Virus record (IMG/VR): IMGVR_UViG_3300049491_001102
Span: 1 to 64,000 of that record
Length of the DNA: 64,000 nt
Reading direction: 5' to 3' (one strand)
Source: a virus
Positions 20,525-33,198 of the stretch are shown piece after piece. The translations under genes were made by a program, and so were the position numbers. The notes under the pieces are model-generated. The model saw only the letters and a program-made list of their open reading frames with translations. It was not told the origin of the DNA and made no database searches. Numbering within the stretch: the stretch's first letter is position 1; each line of letters begins with the position of its first letter.

Positions 20525-23098
20525 CTACGCTGCGAACTTGTACTCTTTCATGGACCCCAATGCTGGTCCCATTTCAAACTCAGCAACCAAGGGGATCTCT
20601 CCAAGGCCACGGGCTTCCATAACAGCCTTCATCAGCTTAGCAGCCTCATCAGCCTCATCTTCTGGTGATTCTGTGTAAATTGCGTCGTGAACTTGTGAGA
20701 TGACAAACGAAGCCAAATCATAATCCTCAAACACATCCACCATTTCACAGATCGCATCGGTAACAATCTCTGCTGAAGATCCTTGTGGGGGCGAATTCAC
20801 AGCCTGTCGTTGCGCAGAAGCAACACGGCCTTGGTCACGACTACCGGCATTACTCAAGTATCTACGTCGCCCAGTATGGCCAAACAGCACATTATTCGTA
20901 AACCCTTGGGCGAGCACAATTGCCTGTTGATGTTTTACCCAGGCATCTAAATCAACGTATAATCCCATAATAGACCTTTTTAGTAATCCAGCCTTAGCAA
21001 CTGTACATTTAAGGTCCTCAGCTAATGACATATCCGACAGACAGTACAAAGTACCAAAGTTCACCTGTTTTGATTCTGACCTGTATTGCTTGATTTGTTT
21101 CGAGTCATATCCCTGCATCACATGCTGCGGAATACCCCAAGCAAGGTCGGATATGAGTTCTGCCGTGCGACGATGCAAGTCCACGCCATCCTTGAAGATT
21201 TGAATCATCACCCTGTCATTTGATAGATATGCTGCTTTTCGATATTCGATCTGTGAATAGTCCGCTTTGATCAATATCTTTCCTGGTGGAGCAACAAAGA
21301 TATTTTGAATCATAGGCCCATAAACCTCGTCACGCATTGGCATGTTTTGGAGGTTTGGCTTGTCACTACTCCAACGTGCAGTCTCAGTCCCTATCGGATT
21401 AAACCTCCCATGGATCCTGCCATCTGGCGTGATGAACTTGAGTAGGGGCAACCCATAACGGTCTCTAATCGTTTGATGGCGCTTATACTCGGAATAAAGC
21501 TCAACAGATGGATGTTTACCCTTCAATGCTTTAATCGCATCGGCATCCACGGATGTATTGCCATTATTACTCAATCCAAGCTTGTTAAAGAACAAATCAG
21601 ACACTTGCGCGGGCGAAGACCACTCGATGTTTCCGTATGCTGAAAGTTTCGATTGCATTTCTGCAATCTTCATTCTCGCATAGGCATCCACAGCGTAAAT
21701 CTGCTGTTTATTTGCAAGGAGGCCGCGTCCCTCAATTTTAGCTATAGTGCGCGGGATTTTACGCATCAACGAACCATAAGTTCGTTTGGCACCTTCATCC
21801 GCCGGCAACTGCACATCAGTCACATTCACGGCTAACAAAGACGATGCGACAGTATCCAGACAGCAATAACGGTTCCGCGTTGGTGCGGCCACCAACCCGT
21901 AAGCGAACGAATCTTCGGCTATCTCTCGATACACAACCGAAGCGGCCAAAGCCCGCGGAAACACACCCCGCAAAACAGCAACATCCGTGGTGGTGTTCTT
22001 GCGCGCCATGGAGATCGCGGTACGAGCCGCTTCCAACGCGTCTTGCATCTCGCGCTTGTGCCCGCCCATGCCGACACTCTCGGCCTGCGACTCCAAGCTG
22101 ACCTCGGCATCCGAGCGCACAAGCTTGCGTCCCAGCATCGAATCTTCTGTGGCGTTCTGCACCTCTGCATGAATTCGGGGGCAAAGCTTTGAGGCGCGAA
22201 TATCCGCTGACAAACCGTGGCCACCTTTGACGATCTTGGGGTTTTCCAAGATCGCGCGCATGGGTGCCACACATCGCTCATCCCCCAATGCATCTCCCCA
22301 CACGAATGCCGTTGTCTCGCCGCGTCGCGTCATCGCGAGCGTATCAACCTGAAAAAACTCCGTGTGCATGTGCCCTGAGAACTCGGTATCGAACACCACA
22401 GCACGCGTAGCGCCCAAGTAGTCACAGGCTGCTTGCGCATCTTCGGGCGTCTCAATTTCGTAGAACTCTGCATCCCACGGTGGTTGTTGTGGCAAGGGTT
22501 CGTTGAAAATCCAGGACAAATCATCCTGGAATTCCTTTGCAAAAAATCGATTGGATGAGAGCGCGTACGCATCCCGCAACATGTACACTGGCGTTTTTGT
22601 CTCGTAGAGATATGCGTATGGCCGCCGCGCTCCGGGGATGTGCAAGCCATCCTTGTTCGGTGTGACCGTTTGCCGGTTCACCACCGCATACGAGGCAGCG
22701 TCACCGAACGTGATGATTTTCGAGGGTTTCAGCGCACGCACCATCGACGCTAAATAGGTGCGACACTGATCGATCTCATCCTTGGTTGGGTACGAGGAAG
22801 CGTGGCACCGCGCTGCGTAAGTGTAAAAAACTGGACCCGAATATTTCTGGGCAATCTCAAAGCGCACCCAAGCACCAACGTCGTCAATGAACGAAATTCC
22901 GCTCACATCGTTGGTGTAATTGGGTGCGCTGCCGATCACGAGCACGCAACCTTGGACGGCATCACCATGTCCTTGGATGCACCGATTGCGCGCATATTGA
23001 TGACGAGAACAACTCGTGCACCCTGGATTCGTGCGCGTGGCCTCCACTGTCTCCAGCGGAACTCGTTTGTCGTTTGGATACAGTGGGAGGCGCTTCAT
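20525..23098 (-). CDS. polA: Family A DNA polymerase with N-terminal UDG-family-4-like domain and 3'-5' exonuclease
   Basis: FDTE exo I, YCCLD exo III, ADYSQIE (motif A), KQVNFGTLY (motif B), QVHD (motif C); N-terminal CTSC..VIGSAP..C..C. Confidence 0.95.
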   Translation of the reverse strand: MKRLPLYPNDKRVPLETVEATRTNPGCTSCSRHQYARNRCIQGHGDAVQGCVLVIGSAPNYTNDVSGISFIDDVGAWVRFEIAQKYSGPVFYTYAARCHASSYPTKDEIDQCRTYLASMVRALKPSKIITFGDAASYAVVNRQTVTPNKDGLHIPGARRPYAYLYETKTPVYMLRDAYALSSNRFFAKEFQDDLSWIFNEPLPQQPPWDAEFYEIETPEDAQAACDYLGATRAVVFDTEFSGHMHTEFFQVDTLAMTRRGETTAFVWGDALGDERCVAPMRAILENPKIVKGGHGLSADIRASKLCPRIHAEVQNATEDSMLGRKLVRSDAEVSLESQAESVGMGGHKREMQDALEAARTAISMARKNTTTDVAVLRGVFPRALAASVVYREIAEDSFAYGLVAAPTRNRYCCLDTVASSLLAVNVTDVQLPADEGAKRTYGSLMRKIPRTIAKIEGRGLLANKQQIYAVDAYARMKIAEMQSKLSAYGNIEWSSPAQVSDLFFNKLGLSNNGNTSVDADAIKALKGKHPSVELYSEYKRHQTIRDRYGLPLLKFITPDGRIHGRFNPIGTETARWSSDKPNLQNMPMRDEVYGPMIQNIFVAPPGKILIKADYSQIEYRKAAYLSNDRVMIQIFKDGVDLHRRTAELISDLAWGIPQHVMQGYDSKQIKQYRSESKQVNFGTLYCLSDMSLAEDLKCTVAKAGLLKRSIMGLYVDLDAWVKHQQAIVLAQGFTNNVLFGHTGRRRYLSNAGSRDQGRVASAQRQAVNSPPQGSSAEIVTDAICEMVDVFEDYDLASFVISQVHDAIYTESPEDEADEAAKLMKAVMEARGLGEIPLVAEFEMGPALGSMKEYKFAA

Positions 23099-25387: not shown

Positions 25388-25682
25388 CTTCCAACTCCAC
25401 TCCGTTAAACCTGAACCATTGTGTGCGAGTAATCGGACGCGCCTTTAGCAAGAAAAGCTTTGATGCAACAAGAGACCCATTCTTAGGTGGGTAATACGGG
25501 TTCAAGTCATAGTTTATGTGCACAGTTATTAATGCTACGGGCGCAGCATTAATGCACAAATTCTCGACTTTAGAAATAAGATCGTCCTGATTGAGTAGCG
25601 GTACGTGAGGACTAATGTTGAGCACTTTCATTCGACCGTAAAGATTAACGACGATTAGGTCGAGTTGCATCTCTGTAATCAT
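25311..25682 (-). CDS. Hypothetical protein between helicase and primase
   Basis: ATGA-coupled to the helicase stop, GGAGG RBS; visibly lower GC. Confidence 0.55.
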   Translation of the reverse strand: MITEMQLDLIVVNLYGRMKVLNISPHVPLLNQDDLISKVENLCINAAPVALITVHINYDLNPYYPPKNGSLVASKLFLLKARPITRTQWFRFNGVELEDGLEDDQSDSAGNCPNTESGVVGLG

Positions 25683-27028
25683 GGAGTCCTCCCTGGTAGT
25701 TGAATAACACTTGGAGCGTTGAATCCTGGAACAGGAGAGTGCATTTGTGGCGCACCCATGCCCGTACACGATGTCAGTCGGCCGAACTGCTGCTCGGTCA
25801 CAACGGGCCCGACAGTTCCCTCTTGACCAGATCGATTTTTGGCAACGTTGAAATAAAAACCCTTCGGAGTCTTGTTCAGCGTTATCCACTGCTGTGAAAG
25901 CCTTGGCTTCCATGCAGACTGACAAAAGTGTGACTTGTCGTAGAACTGCGCAGTTCCCTTATCTTTAGCCTGGGAACCTACCGCGATGACACAATCCTCT
26001 TCCTCAGCGAGAGCGACCATTTCCTCCCACACTTGTTTGTATAGGTCTGTGTTGGCCATATTTTTTAGGACTTGCTCAATCGTGAGTTTATCCCCGTAGT
26101 CTATACTCAGCACACTAACAGGTCGTCCGGTCTGCTGCTTCACTTCCTTGACCCAGAGGCGAATATCACCAACGGTGCATTTACCCTCAAGAAGATACTT
26201 GAGGAACAGTTTACCGTTTGGAACCTTCGCCTGGCGTTGTGCAAAGCGTTTACGGGCCTCGAAATCGTTTCCTTCCACGATTTCGAGGTAGGGAATGTCC
26301 GTCATGTCCCCAAACATGCGGGCGCCCAACTCGGGGATCGGCATTTCGTTGGAGGCATAGAGCGCAATCTCGTCGCGCATCACCGCCCGAATGACGAGTT
26401 GGCTCAAAATCATCGACTTGCCATCGCCGGCCGAACCCAAAAATGTCGTCACCGTGCGCTTGGGCAGACCGCCGCGCAAGAAAGCGTCCAGCTCGGAGCA
26501 ACCCGTGGCAATCCGCGAAGTCGATCGCAATGCGGCGATCTTGGCAAACATCGACGCGTCGAGTTGCTCCCCAACACCAGCGACCAAGATCCCAACTTTG
26601 TCCAACCGCGAAAGCTGTTCAATGACTTTTTGCCGACTTTCACCCTTAAGCGCGGACTCAATCCCCTTTAGCTTGATGCGTGGCTCCATTATCGTTTTGA
26701 ATTGCTCAAGAACGATTTCTGGCTTACGCCGCGGATCATCCATCGTATTCGCAACGTACTCCGAGTACGCGTACGCTTGGTCAATGGTGATTTTCCCGGC
26801 CTGCTTGCACAGAGTGAGAATTTCTTGCCTTATCGCACTGAAAGTTTCGAAAGCTTGGCTTGTACGGTCAAAGTATAGCTTGCAAAGTCCGATGACAAAA
26901 ACAGCTTCTGGAGAGACGAACGCCTCAATCTCGATTACTTTGTCAAGAGTGGCAAAAATGTTCTTGGAAAAGACGCAGTGGTAGACGACTTCGCGCTCGA
27001 ATAGCGCGTCAATGACGTACTTATCCAT
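25679..27028 (-). CDS. dnaB: DnaB-like replicative helicase
   Basis: TGCSELD..GG, GSAGDGKS, SNEM, IDYGD, GSQ, AKNRSG. Confidence 0.9.
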   Translation of the reverse strand: MDKYVIDALFEREVVYHCVFSKNIFATLDKVIEIEAFVSPEAVFVIGLCKLYFDRTSQAFETFSAIRQEILTLCKQAGKITIDQAYAYSEYVANTMDDPRRKPEIVLEQFKTIMEPRIKLKGIESALKGESRQKVIEQLSRLDKVGILVAGVGEQLDASMFAKIAALRSTSRIATGCSELDAFLRGGLPKRTVTTFLGSAGDGKSMILSQLVIRAVMRDEIALYASNEMPIPELGARMFGDMTDIPYLEIVEGNDFEARKRFAQRQAKVPNGKLFLKYLLEGKCTVGDIRLWVKEVKQQTGRPVSVLSIDYGDKLTIEQVLKNMANTDLYKQVWEEMVALAEEEDCVIAVGSQAKDKGTAQFYDKSHFCQSAWKPRLSQQWITLNKTPKGFYFNVAKNRSGQEGTVGPVVTEQQFGRLTSCTGMGAPQMHSPVPGFNAPSVIQLPGRTP

Positions 27029-27031
27029 GAA

Positions 27032-28930
27032 TCAACCCCACCCCCAACGCCCTTTGCGGATCAAGTCTTCGCGCTGCAAACGATCCGCGTGCCAAGCTCT
27101 TTGAATCGCGTTCACACGCTCCGCGCAATCTTGTGGTGTTTTGGGTAGGACTTTTTTCGCTGCTAAGTCTTCCAGATACAAAATAACACGCTCCGCAAGG
27201 TCCTCGTCCACCGCAACGCCTTGTCGTTGCTCTTCGATGACGCTCTCGATGAGCTTCTCGCGGATAGTCGTCCACATGTATAACCAAACGTCATATTCCT
27301 CGGGCGCGTACGATGAACGACAGAACTGGTGAGCGTAACGATTGGCCTCGTTAATTTGCCAATCTTCTATTACAGGCGGAAAAACGTTCAACAACTTGAT
27401 GTCCCGGAATTTGAACTTCTTGTTTGCATGGTCGACGAGATACGACACGCGAACACGTGCCCACTCGTGCGGCGAGATGCCCTTCTCAGCGAGAAGATCA
27501 AATCGCTCTGCTAACACACTGATTTCAGCCATGGTAATCGTCGTGGGTGACGACCACTTTCCTGATTCAGCTTCGAGTGCGGCCGTATACGCGTTGATAA
27601 GTAAACCGGCTTTTTCTTGCTTGGTAGCGTGAATGCTCAATCGCGGAAACTTTGGGCCTTCAAAAGGCTTGTCGAAGAATGCATACGGACCCCTTGGGTA
27701 CAACTTCCCGATTAAGTCGGTGGCCAAAGCTTTGCGCTGTTCATGAAGCTCACCCAGACGCTTCTGCCGCTCTTTCGCTTCAGGTGACATCTTCTCCCCC
27801 GAAAGCAAATCAGCAAAGGACAAGTTCCTCAGCTCTTCGTCCGTATAAAATGTTTCCTCTTCCGTCGGCATTGGCTCCGCGTGTGTATTTAATAGTTGGT
27901 CGACGGAAAAGTTATCCGCAGAGTTTTGCGCGACTCCTTGCGGTGATTCCTCGGATTGATCGGGCGGGAGTTCTGAACTTGGCGCAGAAATCTCGGCGAG
28001 GAGTTCTGGTTTTCTGCCCTCTTCGCAAGAAGAGAAAAAAAACGACGGGGCCGGCGAAGCTGGGCCCGTCGTTTCTTCTTCTTCAGAAGAAGAAACACAA
28101 CCATACAACCATACAACCACACTACACGAATTTAGAACGCCGTTCTGAGCGTGATTTTGAAAGCGTACACCCCCATAGCTCAAAACGGGGGGTGAAAGGA
28201 CAGGTGAAAGGACAGGTGAAAGGACAGGTGAAAGGACAGGGTGAAGTTGGGGGGTGAAGTTGGTGTCCACTTCACCGGATCGGCGAAGCTCTTTCACCCG
28301 GCGACGACGAGCGGACCTTGCGTCGTTTTCTGCGGCGGAGTTCTCCCGCCCAAGTGACCATGCACTGACTTGTTGCCCGACGTTTCGCTCGATCGCCAAA
28401 TAGAGCTCCTGAGGAATTAGAACTCTGTCATCCCCTTGTACTTCACCAAAAACACGACGAACGGTTGTCTTCGTCTTAGAAGACGATGCACCGATGTCTA
28501 CAACAAGACCTAATAAACGAAGAGCATTAAGATAGTAGAAGACATTTCTACGTGTCATCGGTTTATCCACACGATCCCGTGTCTTCTCCTCTTTTTGTAC
28601 CTTCTCGTCACGGTCTCGATGTCGTTGCAACCAAAAGGGAAACTTCGCACAAAGGGTGTCGACGCTGTATTGGATGAAGCCCGCGTTATCCCGGGCTTTT
28701 AGCAAGCAGCGCCACAAAACATTCAGATTGCTGCCGATGTAATCGGAGACGCGCCGCGGCGAAATTGCCACCAGGTCCACCCCTTTGGGTGACCAGTTTC
28801 GTGTCAAAATTTCGTTGCCGTAAGCACCAGGGAACGCTAAACTATTCACGCAAGCAACTTTCTTTAACAGCGAACAGTGCTGCCTTTGAGCATTGGGATT
28901 TGTTAAACAGGGGAAACGTTGTTCGTTCAA
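27032..28930 (-). CDS. Putative replication initiator (N-terminal winged helix, internal iterons, C-terminal helical domain)
   Basis: Directly upstream of DnaB; contains 12-bp tandem repeats as lambda O does; start uncertain. Confidence 0.7.
   Translation of the reverse strand: MNEQRFPCLTNPNAQRQHCSLLKKVACVNSLAFPGAYGNEILTRNWSPKGVDLVAISPRRVSDYIGSNLNVLWRCLLKARDNAGFIQYSVDTLCAKFPFWLQRHRDRDEKVQKEEKTRDRVDKPMTRRNVFYYLNALRLLGLVVDIGASSSKTKTTVRRVFGEVQGDDRVLIPQELYLAIERNVGQQVSAWSLGRENSAAENDARSARRRRVKELRRSGEVDTNFTPQLHPVLSPVLSPVLSPVLSPPVLSYGGVRFQNHAQNGVLNSCSVVVWLYGCVSSSEEEETTGPASPAPSFFFSSCEEGRKPELLAEISAPSSELPPDQSEESPQGVAQNSADNFSVDQLLNTHAEPMPTEEETFYTDEELRNLSFADLLSGEKMSPEAKERQKRLGELHEQRKALATDLIGKLYPRGPYAFFDKPFEGPKFPRLSIHATKQEKAGLLINAYTAALEAESGKWSSPTTITMAEISVLAERFDLLAEKGISPHEWARVRVSYLVDHANKKFKFRDIKLLNVFPPVIEDWQINEANRYAHQFCRSSYAPEEYDVWLYMWTTIREKLIESVIEEQRQGVAVDEDLAERVILYLEDLAAKKVLPKTPQDCAERVNAIQRAWHADRLQREDLIRKGRWGWG
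27887..27913 (-). promoter_or_regulatory. Internal class-II promoter AACTTT-N11-ACTATTAAAT
   Basis: Full motif inside the initiator gene, followed by GGAG and an in-frame ATG at 27871. Confidence 0.6.
28191..28263. repeat. Iteron array / putative replication origin
   Basis: GGTGAAAGGACA x4 exact (28191-28238), then GGTGAAGTTGG x2; inverted TTCACC cores at 28271 and 28293. Confidence 0.8.
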
Positions 28931-28960
28931 AAGGGAAAGCCGTGCAGGGCTTTCCCTTTT
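28929..28960. terminator. Bidirectional terminator-like hairpin at the initiator 5' end
   Basis: AAAAGGGAAAGCC-GTGCAG-GGCTTTCCCTTTT, 13-bp stem. Confidence 0.7.
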
Positions 28961-28963
28961 ACT

Positions 28964-29230
28964 TTATGGACCATCCGCCGATTTGCCTATTGAAGACCTT
29001 TTGTGGTGTTCATCAGCGTAAAACTCTAATAACTTAATAAAATGCTTTGCTGGTTCCCGGTACCCACAACGCCACTGCTTAACGATATCAACGGACCGTT
29101 CCAGAAGTGCACCAACTTGGGGGCACGTCCAACCGGTTTCCGCCATGATCTCGCGCAATCGAATTGATTGGGGACTCAGTCGTTTCACGGAAACTTGCAC
29201 GTGACACTCATCCACGGGTACGGTGCGCAC
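28964..29230 (-). CDS. Small HTH (Cro/XRE-like) regulator
   Basis: LREIMAETGWTCPQVGALLERSVDIVKQWRCG. Confidence 0.7.
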   Translation of the reverse strand: MRTVPVDECHVQVSVKRLSPQSIRLREIMAETGWTCPQVGALLERSVDIVKQWRCGYREPAKHFIKLLEFYADEHHKRSSIGKSADGP

Positions 29231-29300
29231 GCGCTAACCGTACGTCCTTTCACCCGTCTCGTCCACCCGTTCGTCGGGGATTTGCGCTGTGGCGCTCGGG

Positions 29301-29726
29301 TTACGCGAGGTCGAGACGGGCGGCCGCGCCCTGGGGGATCCAGACCGTGTTGCCGGTGACTGCCCCATAAACCCGGCGAACGGTGGCATGCGAACGAAAC
29401 CCAGGTCGAAGGACTCGCGTCAAGCCGAGGTCGTCAACCGCGTGGATGTAGTCGCGCGTTACCCGGTCGGTCACCTGGGTCGTGATGCGGATCCCATCGA
29501 CACCGCCACGCGAGAACCATCGGGGGATCGCAGCGCGGAATTGGAGGTTGGACCAGGCCAGTTCACCATGGTCATCGCGAAGATCGAGCATTCGCAGCCA
29601 AAGCACAATGAGGGCTCTCTTCGTGTTCCGTTGGAGTTTTCGGCGACTCTCGACGACCATTTCAATCGATTCGTCTGGCCATTTTTGAAACGGGATAACA
29701 CTGTTGCTAGCGACTTCAATTTTCAT
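29301..29726 (-). CDS. Stand-alone paralogue of the initiator N-terminal DNA-binding domain
   Basis: L.VLW...L..RD..G, Y..A...LGL and TVRRV(Y/F)G.V.G..V.IPQ shared with 27032..28930; GAGGG RBS. Confidence 0.75.
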   Translation of the reverse strand: MKIEVASNSVIPFQKWPDESIEMVVESRRKLQRNTKRALIVLWLRMLDLRDDHGELAWSNLQFRAAIPRWFSRGGVDGIRITTQVTDRVTRDYIHAVDDLGLTRVLRPGFRSHATVRRVYGAVTGNTVWIPQGAAARLDLA

Positions 29727-29965
29727 GGGGTTCCCTCGTCTTGCCCGCGCGAAAACGTTGTGCTCTGCTGAACGAGCCAGGTTGCTTCCCGTTCGATGGT
29801 CGGCGGGGTCGCGGTGATGCTGCGCGTGTTTTGCTTCTCTCTTCTTCGTCTCGGTGTCGGGGGCGGTGCTTCGCAAAGGCACCGCCCCTTTTTATGCTAG
29901 GGTTGCATCAACACACCTGCCGGGCGCGGTCGTAAGTCCAGCTCACTCGGGGGTTTTTTTATTGG

Positions 29966-30103
29966 TTAGTCGTCCCCTCGTTGATGCCTCAGTTTTCGGG
30001 TCTGGGTACGAATTCGCCGGGCTCGATCGCTGCGGGCGATCTTTTCACAGCGACGACAGCAAAGGATTCGGCGACGAATTTTCTTGCGAATGGTTCGGCT
30101 CAT
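29966..30103 (-). CDS. 45-aa Arg-rich peptide MSRTIRKKIRRRILCCRRCEK... (absent from the ORF track)
   Basis: Translated by hand; GAGG upstream, preceded by an overlapping ATG-AGC-TAA minigene. Confidence 0.45.
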   Translation of the reverse strand: MSRTIRKKIRRRILCCRRCEKIARSDRARRIRTQTRKLRHQRGDD

Positions 30104-30311: not shown

Positions 30312-30587
30312 ATGCCTTCCCGCGCACCAAAGTTGTCTAAAACGGAACGAAAAATCATCAACATCATTCTGGCCAATCCTGTGGAATGCACGGGGCGCGA
30401 GTTGTTCCGGCTCGCCGCTGGTGAACTGCAAATCGGCACCATTTACACCACGCTGCAACGCATGGAGAGAAAGGGATTTTTGGCGTCCGTGGTGGAAGAG
30501 CGGCGGCCATCGGTGCCCGGAAACTTGCGGCGATTTTACTCAGTTACGTCTTTGGGCCTCCGAACATGCGACATCGCTATGTTCTAG
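30312..30587 (+). CDS. PadR family transcriptional regulator
   Basis: GTIYTTLQRMERKGFL...RRFYSVTSLG. Confidence 0.85.
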   Translation: MPSRAPKLSKTERKIINIILANPVECTGRELFRLAAGELQIGTIYTTLQRMERKGFLASVVEERRPSVPGNLRRFYSVTSLGLRTCDIAMF

Positions 30588-30860
30588 GCTCGTTTGTAGA
30601 ATTTCAATGAAGTGCAGCATAGCTTGGCGACCCGTAAACACGAGGTACACTTGAGGTTCATCTCGTTGTGCTGGCTCTTGCCCCACTTCATATCCATCTG
30701 GTGCCAAACGGCCCGTGATTTCTGGGTCACCAATTGGTCCCGGGGGCTGTGGTGCCAATAATATCGCGTAATGCTTGTCACCCTGTTGGACCTGGGCCAC
30801 ATAAACGCTACCATGTCCAAATTGAACAGTTGTCTTGTTTCCTTGAATTTCAATACTCAT
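30540..30860 (-). CDS. Hypothetical protein
   Basis: ORF following the helicase. Confidence 0.55.
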   Translation of the reverse strand: MSIEIQGNKTTVQFGHGSVYVAQVQQGDKHYAILLAPQPPGPIGDPEITGRLAPDGYEVGQEPAQRDEPQVYLVFTGRQAMLHFIEILQTSLEHSDVACSEAQRRN

Positions 30861-32375: not shown

Positions 32376-32620
32376 AGCTCTAGCAACTTGGCCATTTCTG
32401 GCCCGAGATGGGTTTTGACTGAATCGTATTGAATGAAAATGGTTTGGCCGAGCTTTTCCGTTTTGACGTGGGCTTCCTCGACCCACTTGTAGATCGCAGA
32501 AGTGGACAACATCACCTTGTCCGCCACGTCCTGAACGGTCCAATACCCCTTCGCCCGCATCCGTGCGACGAGCTGCTCGCGTCGAGTTGCTGCCCGATGG
32601 GCGCGCACAGAATCCGTCAT
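32372..32620 (-). CDS. Excisionase/MerR-like HTH DNA-binding protein
   Basis: WTVQDVADKVMLSTSAIYKWV. Confidence 0.75.
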   Translation of the reverse strand: MTDSVRAHRAATRREQLVARMRAKGYWTVQDVADKVMLSTSAIYKWVEEAHVKTEKLGQTIFIQYDSVKTHLGPEMAKLLEL

Positions 32621-33198
32621 TGAAGCAACTCCTCACGAACCATCGTCAAAAATGTACGCCGGCAACTCCACAGATACCGACGGTTGTGCCCTTGTTGTGT
32701 GAGTTCATGGATGACATCTTTCCGCTCAACACCCATCATTTCTTCTCGGACAATCTGGGCTCCGATTGCACATTTCGGGTATTCACCAGCTAAACGTGCA
32801 ATGACGCGGTCTGCTGCCAACGATATTTCTTTCGTTAGGAAGGCGTCTTCGACGTTGTCCACCGTGGTGGTTGTAGGGTCCAGAACCTTAGTTTGTTCAT
32901 TCAAAGTGCAGTCCGCCCACTCATGTCGATTTTTGTAGATATTGACGTTTCGAATCGCCATAAGTTGGGTGTAGACCACTCGATACAGATACGTTTCTGG
33001 ATAATCCGGTGAAAATCCTTCTGCGAGCTTCATGAGCACCCGCATCCAACCGTGTTGGATAAGATCAGGCTCATCCACAAAGCTCAGCAACCACTCGTTC
33101 TTTCGGCGAAAACTATAGACAGCCTTGAGAATGCAAGATTCTACGGCCTCATGGCTTAGATAGACGTCTGTTCCTGAAATTCTGTATTGCGTACTCAT
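32617..33198 (-). CDS. ECF-like RNA polymerase sigma factor
   Basis: Region 2-like DEPDLIQHGWMRVL...ETYLYRVV; C-terminal region-4-like helices; 193 aa. Confidence 0.65.
   Translation of the reverse strand: MSTQYRISGTDVYLSHEAVESCILKAVYSFRRKNEWLLSFVDEPDLIQHGWMRVLMKLAEGFSPDYPETYLYRVVYTQLMAIRNVNIYKNRHEWADCTLNEQTKVLDPTTTTVDNVEDAFLTKEISLAADRVIARLAGEYPKCAIGAQIVREEMMGVERKDVIHELTQQGHNRRYLWSCRRTFLTMVREELLQ

Follow-up and report, generated by a model that had tools for sequence, protein, structure and literature searches.

A candidate phage replication-origin module built around a two-domain initiator candidate and its winged-helix paralogue

To our knowledge, experiments have defined replication origins and their initiators in no more than a few model phages, and most large uncultivated phages lack an initiator that we would recognise. 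Among the closest described systems is phage lambda, in which transcription near the origin inside gene O matters (PMC5043065). SPP1 encodes an origin binder (gp38, with oriL within gene 38), a loader (gp39) and a DnaB-type helicase (gp40) (PMC6316719), and in pIGRK the initiator RepR and its N-terminally shortened form RepR' have opposing roles (PMC6854812). Here we describe a locus in the first 64 kb (the stretch of DNA that was analysed, hereafter the window) of IMG/VR record IMGVR_UViG_3300049491_001102, the 111,463-bp genome of an uncultivated phage, rated complete by CheckV. The locus centres on a long open reading frame (ORF) with origin-like DNA inside it, and on a 141-aa ORF that is related to its N-terminal part.

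Our preferred reading, to which we give a probability of roughly 0.55, is that this is a phage replication-origin module: an initiator of a new family with a fused, separately expressible loader half, accompanied by a winged-helix paralogue that would act as its regulator. The locus would then be a variant of the known type in which an initiator gene contains its own origin, to which it adds a loader-like domain fused to the initiator, a promoter within the gene and a paralogue consisting of a single domain. The sequence observations are solid, and the mechanism that we build on them is mostly inferred.

A winged-helix protein, its small paralogue and the repeats within its gene

The reading frame of the long ORF is open over 632 codons, with 24-26 stops in each of the other two frames. 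Its start is ambiguous: GTG 28849 best fits the alignment with the relative P0001 and with the paralogue, GTG 28771 has the better ribosome-binding site (AAGGGG), and one of these two is likely to be the start of the gene. The protein has three parts: a strongly basic N-terminal winged-helix domain (N-domain), an acidic low-complexity linker and an all-alpha C-terminal domain (C-domain). It matched no Pfam family at E<=0.01 and nothing in PHROG, and a comparison of seven family members with Pfam gave nothing relevant at E<=1 (no Phage_rep_O, no Rep_3 and no P-loop family). The original prediction had likened the protein to lambdoid initiators, a label that holds as an analogy, in that repeats lie inside the initiator gene, but not as a family assignment, since no member has a Pfam or PHROG match.

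The predicted paralogy between the N-domain and the 141-aa protein was borne out in each of its parts. BLASTP, run as a single comparison, aligned the small protein with residues 44-174 of the long one (E 4e-10, with 28% identity across 131 aa); the pair (29301-29726 and 27032-28930) is likewise recovered when the genome of the phage is searched in six frames; and the small ORF, which had been said to stop shortly after the shared region, terminates 9 residues past the shared ...IPQ. Modelled with AlphaFold2 from an alignment of N-domains, the small protein is a single winged helix with helix-strand-helix-helix-hairpin topology (pLDDT 79.4, pTM 0.74), and the small protein aligns over its whole length with the N-domain of the long one. 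When the model was compared with 48,161 PDB chains using VIA, all of the 50 matches listed were winged-helix domains or proteins containing one (Z 6.1-8.1), and no single winged-helix family stands out among those 50. RepA_N initiators were found among the fold matches (4pta at Z 6.4; 5kbj and 4pql weakly, at Foldseek E 0.1-0.2), tied with many unrelated winged helices. A protein-atlas search with the small protein yielded weak helix-turn-helix (HTH)-like leads only. Like the N-domain, the small protein is strongly basic (isoelectric points, pI, in Table 1), and it too is without a Pfam or PHROG match.

The two genes differ in third-position GC content (GC3), which is 0.66 for the small paralogue (29301-29726) and 0.50 for the initiator N-domain (28361-28849). 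Either the two copies parted long ago or one of them derives from another relative. A recent foreign acquisition of the small gene was considered and set aside, as its GC content is 0.589, a value that ranks no higher than the top 8% among windows of the genome.

Six relatives of the long protein came out of an exhaustive phmmer search that covered 1.84 billion representative proteins. Three of them (599, 457 and 437 aa) span the full length, with an N-domain, a variable low-complexity linker and a C-domain at <=38% identity; one consists of the N-domain only (259 aa), one of the C-domain only (280 aa), and the sixth (303 aa) matches solely in a low-complexity repeat stretch of the linker. Two of the full-length relatives show repeats with a 4-residue period just after the N-domain, as 12-bp DNA repeats would give. 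Because the frame is open across the linker, and is open in four genomes at <=38% identity, the full-length fusion protein appears to be selected. A near-identical DNA search and tblastn of 50,697 phage records found no match, nor did viral-contig scans with the C-domain, P0001, P0002, P0003, P0005 and P0006 or a genome-contig scan with the C-domain profile; the viral-contig scan with the helicase profile returned only relatives at 23-24% identity. Protein searches by word index gave no match either, whether run with just the C-domain or with the full alignment (the latter was probably swamped by low-complexity words), and a profile search with the N-domain picked up one weak 120-aa match and otherwise only P0003 and the protein of the window itself.

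The linker codons between the N-domain and the C-domain carry the DNA that we regard as a candidate origin. The iterons that had been predicted in the long gene are present there as four exact tandem copies of the 12-bp unit GGTGAAAGGACA (28191-28238), which encode (PVLS)4, joined by two degenerate GGGTGAAGTTGG units (28239-28263). Read along the gene, the elements come in the order of two inverted GGTGAA cores that face the array (this core is clustered about 50-fold at the locus), the six direct repeats, three tandem ACAACCAT 8-mers, a perfect 12-bp palindrome (28071-28096) and a GC-rich hairpin (28037-28077) followed by T8 on the sense strand, with the promoter motif described below following after about 115 nt. 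The ACAACCAT units are a candidate DNA-unwinding element. The hairpin and T8, which lie downstream of the palindrome (at lower coordinates) and still inside the long ORF, had been missed by the original prediction; they may be an intrinsic terminator within the ORF or a DNA-level origin element.

The 11-mer core of the repeat, GGTGAAAGGAC, would be expected about 0.05 times per genome, and its sole exact copy outside the array in 111,463 bp lies at 29244-29254, inverted relative to the array, 47 nt past the stop of the small paralogue gene and 13 nt ahead of an HTH ORF. This copy bears on the least probable of the accounts that we considered, in which slippage produced the 12-bp repeats as coding sequence for a disordered linker and nothing more, the small ORF encodes an unrelated winged-helix transcription regulator or is a duplicate in decay, and there is no origin here. 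Low-complexity linkers do vary freely among the relatives, no known initiator family matches, and the small gene has the higher GC3; yet the recurrence of the exact 11-mer beside the paralogue, the inverted cores, palindrome and low-GC 8-mers that flank the array, and the identity of the four GGTGAAAGGACA units at every codon position all argue against such an account, as does a small ORF that is intact, has a ribosome-binding site and models confidently.

The C-domain, the adjacent helicase and an internal promoter motif

The C-domain stops 3 nt before the ATG of a DnaB-like helicase gene. Its model is all-alpha (pLDDT 77.9); no PDB sequence came below E 0.1 in profile searches, and fold searches found generic helical bundles only (best Foldseek E 0.42, best VIA Z 5.6). 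A model of the C-domain in complex with the helicase scored 0.77, whereas the best of three controls scored 0.00; this mark is reached by 58 of 80 solved complexes and by 2 of 110 mismatched pairs, a calibration that is only roughly applicable, as custom alignments were used here. The runs agree in at least 56% of contacts, with a partner pLDDT of at least 81, and the predicted contacts join residues 4-25 and 179-241 of the short form (the product of the internal start described below) to the RecA-like domain of the helicase, those of residues 4-25 being the best supported. Since the C-domain is without a solved look-alike, it is unlikely that the score reflects memory of a solved complex. The modelling supports binding of the C-domain to the adjacent DnaB-like helicase.

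A promoter downstream of the iterons, followed by a start for a C-terminal product, had also been predicted. We find the motif AACTTT-N11-RCTATWAW there, two bases off the originally claimed 27887-27913, in one of ten exact copies in the genome (at 861, 9687, 12599, 27889, 34834, 37571, 95421, 95493, 105495 and 105840); six copies fall in the window, where 0.06 would be expected even with one mismatch allowed. All nine other copies lie 5-35 nt upstream of an ORF start, and eight of the nine are outside any same-strand ORF of at least 100 aa (the ninth overlaps a 104-aa ORF), leaving the copy at 27889-27913 as the only one deep within a long ORF. In at least five copies a start codon follows 5-8 nt past the motif, which would imply leaderless messages at those sites. 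The boxes are closer together than in sigma-70 promoters, with about 13-14 nt to the TATWAW hexamer; a sigma-70 scan gave fewer matches than shuffled sequence and no convincing promoter for either the long gene or the small one. The genes behind the motif copies are mixed (an ATPase and an HNH endonuclease-like protein, for example), and no timing class emerged from PHROG annotation of the genes behind the other copies. The in-frame ATG 27871 lies 17 nt past the internal copy and, with the GGAG before it, was confirmed in the sequence as the opening of a 279-aa reading frame.

The relative that has the C-domain as a protein of its own provides a useful comparison. On metagenome contig L003 (2,291 nt), the C-domain is a stand-alone 280-aa gene whose frame is closed upstream by stops, and the DnaB-like helicase gene that overlaps its end is 38% identical to the window's helicase. 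The sequence AACTTT-N11-GTTATTAA, one mismatch away from the window motif, lies 36 nt before the ATG of the C-domain gene and is followed by a good ribosome-binding site, AAAGGAG. Judged from the DNA, the arrangement marks the promoter motif, C-domain and helicase as a conserved unit and the C-domain as able to stand alone as a protein; the window has this unit in frame inside a longer gene. That fused and split forms both occur in nature argues that the two halves are separate functional modules, a binder and a helicase adaptor. Upstream on the same contig, an ORF in another frame (L003:3-164, plus strand) is open to the contig edge and ends 11 nt inside the C-domain gene; this ORF may encode the end of a split protein made of N-domain and linker.

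Under the preferred reading, the N-terminal winged-helix domain would bind the 12-bp repeats and the all-alpha C-domain is predicted to hold the phage's DnaB-like helicase, and the DNA of the origin (repeats, low-GC 8-mers, palindrome, hairpin and T8) would itself code for the acidic, disordered linker between them. The full-length protein would in this way bring the helicase to an origin within its own gene, a single chain taking on what in lambda falls to O and P, or in SPP1 to gp38 and gp39. Transcription from the phage-specific motif that borders the origin downstream probably begins some 10 nt ahead of the GGAG-ATG, and from this message the free C-domain (a helicase adaptor or loader) and the helicase, probably with the primase too, would be made, an arrangement that L003 has as separate genes; firing away from the repeats, the same promoter could help open the origin. 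Some upstream transcripts may stop at the hairpin and T8, shortly before the internal promoter, and if they do, read-through would determine how much full-length product is made relative to the short one; the terminator-like hairpin changes how these two products may relate. The 141-aa paralogue most likely recognises the same or a similar repeat. Its site of action would be the lone inverted copy, the origin array or both, with an influence of either sign on initiator expression or origin firing.

What would be unusual here is a promoter-driven short form without a DNA-binding domain. In a more elaborate and rather doubtful version of the scheme, one frame with an origin, an intragenic terminator and a phage-specific promoter yields both a tethered initiator-loader and a free loader, a separate copy of the origin-binding domain competes at the repeats, and the resulting three-protein titration circuit times origin firing and helicase delivery.

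Several points weigh against the preferred reading. With no homology to a known initiator or loader, the label "initiator" rests on position, fold class and repeats. Classical iterons measure 17-22 bp, and the back-to-back 12-bp repeats are shorter than these and more tightly packed; few positions agree between the recognition helices of the two winged-helix domains, so these domains may bind different DNA; the terminator-like hairpin and T8 could limit full-length expression; and the DNA of relatives was read for L003 only, over 153 nt upstream of its C-domain gene. The internal start invites doubt as well: the GGAG is only 3 nt from ATG 27871, a poor spacing, and the Met aligned with this ATG is an internal residue in the relative P0002, so that it may be conserved as a residue and not as a start. 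Both of the latter points favour a simpler account, which we regard as possible though somewhat unlikely, in which the internal motif is the plain promoter of the helicase-primase-polymerase operon, perhaps activating the origin, the ATG is unused, and only two proteins (the full-length initiator and the small paralogue) are made. The motif class does precede many unrelated genes, and the origin inside the lambda O gene is activated by transcription (PMC5043065). However, L003 translates the C-domain alone from the equivalent position, the window has GCGGAG where L003 has AGCGAA, and the best-supported predicted helicase contacts use the very start of the short form.

The intragenic hairpin also allows the opposite extreme, which we consider quite unlikely: the full-length protein might rarely or never be made, with one transcript ending at the hairpin and T8 (28029-28077) and another starting at the motif promoter, leaving two genes, for an origin binder and a loader like SPP1 gp38 and gp39, without an intervening stop. 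In favour of this, the terminator-like structure (-30.3 kcal/mol, followed by an 8-U tail) precedes the promoter motif by about 115 nt, and a relative has the split arrangement. A transcript that ended at T8 would have no stop codon, however; ribosomes often suppress hairpins in the regions that they translate; the structure could also be an origin element at the level of DNA; and the linker frame kept open at <=38% identity argues for a selected fusion.

The original prediction had gone further and proposed a competitor or repressor role for the small protein and a later C-terminal isoform that could switch the phage to recombination-dependent replication; in this account, the small protein would compete at the iterons and the late isoform would shut off origin firing. 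The RecA, SbcCD-like and SF2 helicase genes on which it drew are indeed present in the neighbourhood (Pfam and PHROG annotation), as is one for SSB, a protein that binds single-stranded DNA; SPP1 switches from theta to recombination-dependent replication (PMC6316719); and an N-terminally truncated in-frame Rep can be a negative regulator, as pIGRK RepR' illustrates (PMC6854812). Nevertheless, sequence gives neither the timing nor the sign of regulation, the promoter class precedes mixed genes, and a free helicase-binding domain is as likely to be a loader (positive) as an inhibitor. Beyond the neighbouring RecA and SbcCD-like genes we find no support for a link between the locus and such a switch, and we judge it very unlikely.

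Gene neighbourhood

The genes of the initiator locus are all on the minus strand, within a replication and recombination block (Table 1) in which the SF2 helicase gene lies at the upstream end and the 141-aa ORF is followed by the HTH ORF, the long ORF and the DnaB-like helicase gene. Downstream of the helicase come the primase gene, a gene for a 476-aa low-complexity protein, the gene for a family-A DNA polymerase, and then gp32-like SSB, RecA, SbcD-like and SbcC-like genes (Pfam and PHROG annotation). The polymerase (20525-23098, minus strand) has an N-terminal domain of the uracil-DNA-glycosylase (UDG) superfamily, fused in front of its 3'-5' exonuclease domain (Pfam UDG, E 1.8e-8, residues 44-179).

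Table 1. Positions in the window of the features and genes discussed in the text
Feature	Position	Strand	Details
Long ORF	27032..28930	-	632 codons from TTG 28930; between the HTH ORF and the DnaB-like helicase gene
N-terminal winged-helix domain, coding region	28361..28801	-	pI 9.9
Inverted GGTGAA cores (two)	28271-28276, 28293-28298 (28271..28298)	-	facing the array
Repeat array	28191..28263	+	4 exact GGTGAAAGGACA and 2 degenerate GGGTGAAGTTGG units; 12-13 bp period
Three tandem ACAACCAT units	28097..28119	+	lowest-GC stretch of the region, 0.375-0.40
Palindrome, GC-rich hairpin and T8	28029..28096	.	repeats I2, I15; RNA fold -30.3 kcal/mol, z -4.8
Promoter motif copy inside the long ORF	27889..27913	-	AACTTT-N11-RCTATWAW; one of ten exact genomic copies
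Internal start and 279-aa C-domain frame	27032..27878	-	GGAG 27878-27875, in-frame ATG 27871
141-aa winged-helix paralogue	29301..29726	-	GAGGGA ribosome-binding site 5 nt before ATG; pI 10.7
Lone inverted repeat copy	29243..29254	-	11/12 bases
88-aa HTH regulator ORF	28964..29230	-	start uncertain; phrog_14341 'transcriptional repressor', E 2.7e-6; weak Pfam HTH_23 match
Hairpin between the HTH and long genes	28929..28960	.	14-bp stem; repeat I4; RNA fold -22.2 kcal/mol, z -5.8
DnaB-like replicative helicase	25679..27028	-	Pfam DnaB_C, phrog_19
PadR-like gene	30312-30587	+	Pfam PadR, E 2.7e-6
106-aa ORF	30540-30860	-	between the SF2 helicase and PadR-like genes
SF2 helicase	32636-30870	-	upstream end of the block

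The PadR-like gene encodes a winged-helix regulator, is the sole plus-strand gene of this minus-strand block and overlaps the 106-aa ORF tail to tail by 48 nt. Between it and the divergent small paralogue gene, a strong hairpin (29859-29895, -26.8 kcal/mol) is followed by TTTTT on the plus strand only; it would terminate transcription antisense to the small gene, and no plus-strand gene or promoter was found upstream of it. The long leader 5' of the small gene also contains a 45-aa ORF (29966-30103, minus strand) that is extremely rich in Arg and Lys and of doubtful coding status. The hairpin that separates the HTH gene from the long gene has an A-run on one flank and a T-run on the other, and is possibly a weak bidirectional terminator. 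Searches for tRNAs and against Rfam gave no match in the initiator-locus region, and an ORF that had been proposed as sigma-like (32617-33198, minus strand) had no Pfam or PHROG match at E<=0.01.

Comparison with known systems

The locus offers a testable initiator candidate and a new two-domain family with six relatives. It would also provide a case in which an origin is encoded in a protein's own linker and in which coding DNA harbours a promoter and a terminator-like element. Should the C-domain contact the helicase as predicted, it would represent a helicase-adaptor fold of a new kind. The stand-alone winged-helix paralogue would offer a simple and testable instance of a domain-only initiator copy that exerts control.

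The likeness to lambda O and P is one of layout: the putative initiator-binding repeats lie inside the initiator's own gene, between the part for an N-terminal DNA-binding domain and that for a C-terminal helicase-recruiting one. There is no sequence relation (no Pfam or PHROG match), and the direct 12-bp units found here contrast with the 19-bp inverted repeats of lambda. Whereas lambda has a separate P protein, the loader-like part is here fused to the initiator; the helicase is phage-encoded; and the gene contains a promoter motif and a terminator-like hairpin.

SPP1 is closer in gene order, which runs binder, loader, helicase, with the origin inside the binder gene, a DnaB-family helicase of the phage's own and recombination genes nearby (PMC6316719). 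This order is found both in the window, where the C-domain and helicase genes are 3 nt apart, and in L003, where they overlap. Unlike in SPP1, binder and loader form one ORF here (they are split in L003) and an extra stand-alone paralogue of the binding domain is present; there is also no sequence or fold match to gp38 or gp39 (PHROG, PDB sequences, and tblastn of 50,697 phage records). As for the known helicase loaders more generally (DnaC/IstB AAA+ proteins, lambda P and gp39), the C-domain resembles generic helical bundles only and has no P-loop family in Pfam.

With the Rep proteins of iteron plasmids (RepE, pi, RepA) the candidate would share a winged helix that recognises tandem direct repeats, and the further repeat copy near the regulator's gene suggests autoregulation, as in those plasmids. 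It differs from them in having one winged helix and not a WH1-WH2 pair, no Rep_3 match, a repeat period of 12 bp as opposed to about 22 bp, and a regulator that is a separate paralogue and not a dimeric form of the same protein.

Finally, as with RepR/RepR' of pIGRK and TrfA-44/33 of RK2, one frame would give both a full-length initiator and an N-terminally shortened form. The short forms of pIGRK and RK2 come from an internal start on the same mRNA and keep DNA binding, whereas the internal start described here has a promoter motif of its own ahead of it, and its product would have no DNA-binding domain. In losing that domain, the predicted short form resembles the inhibitor protein of Tn5.

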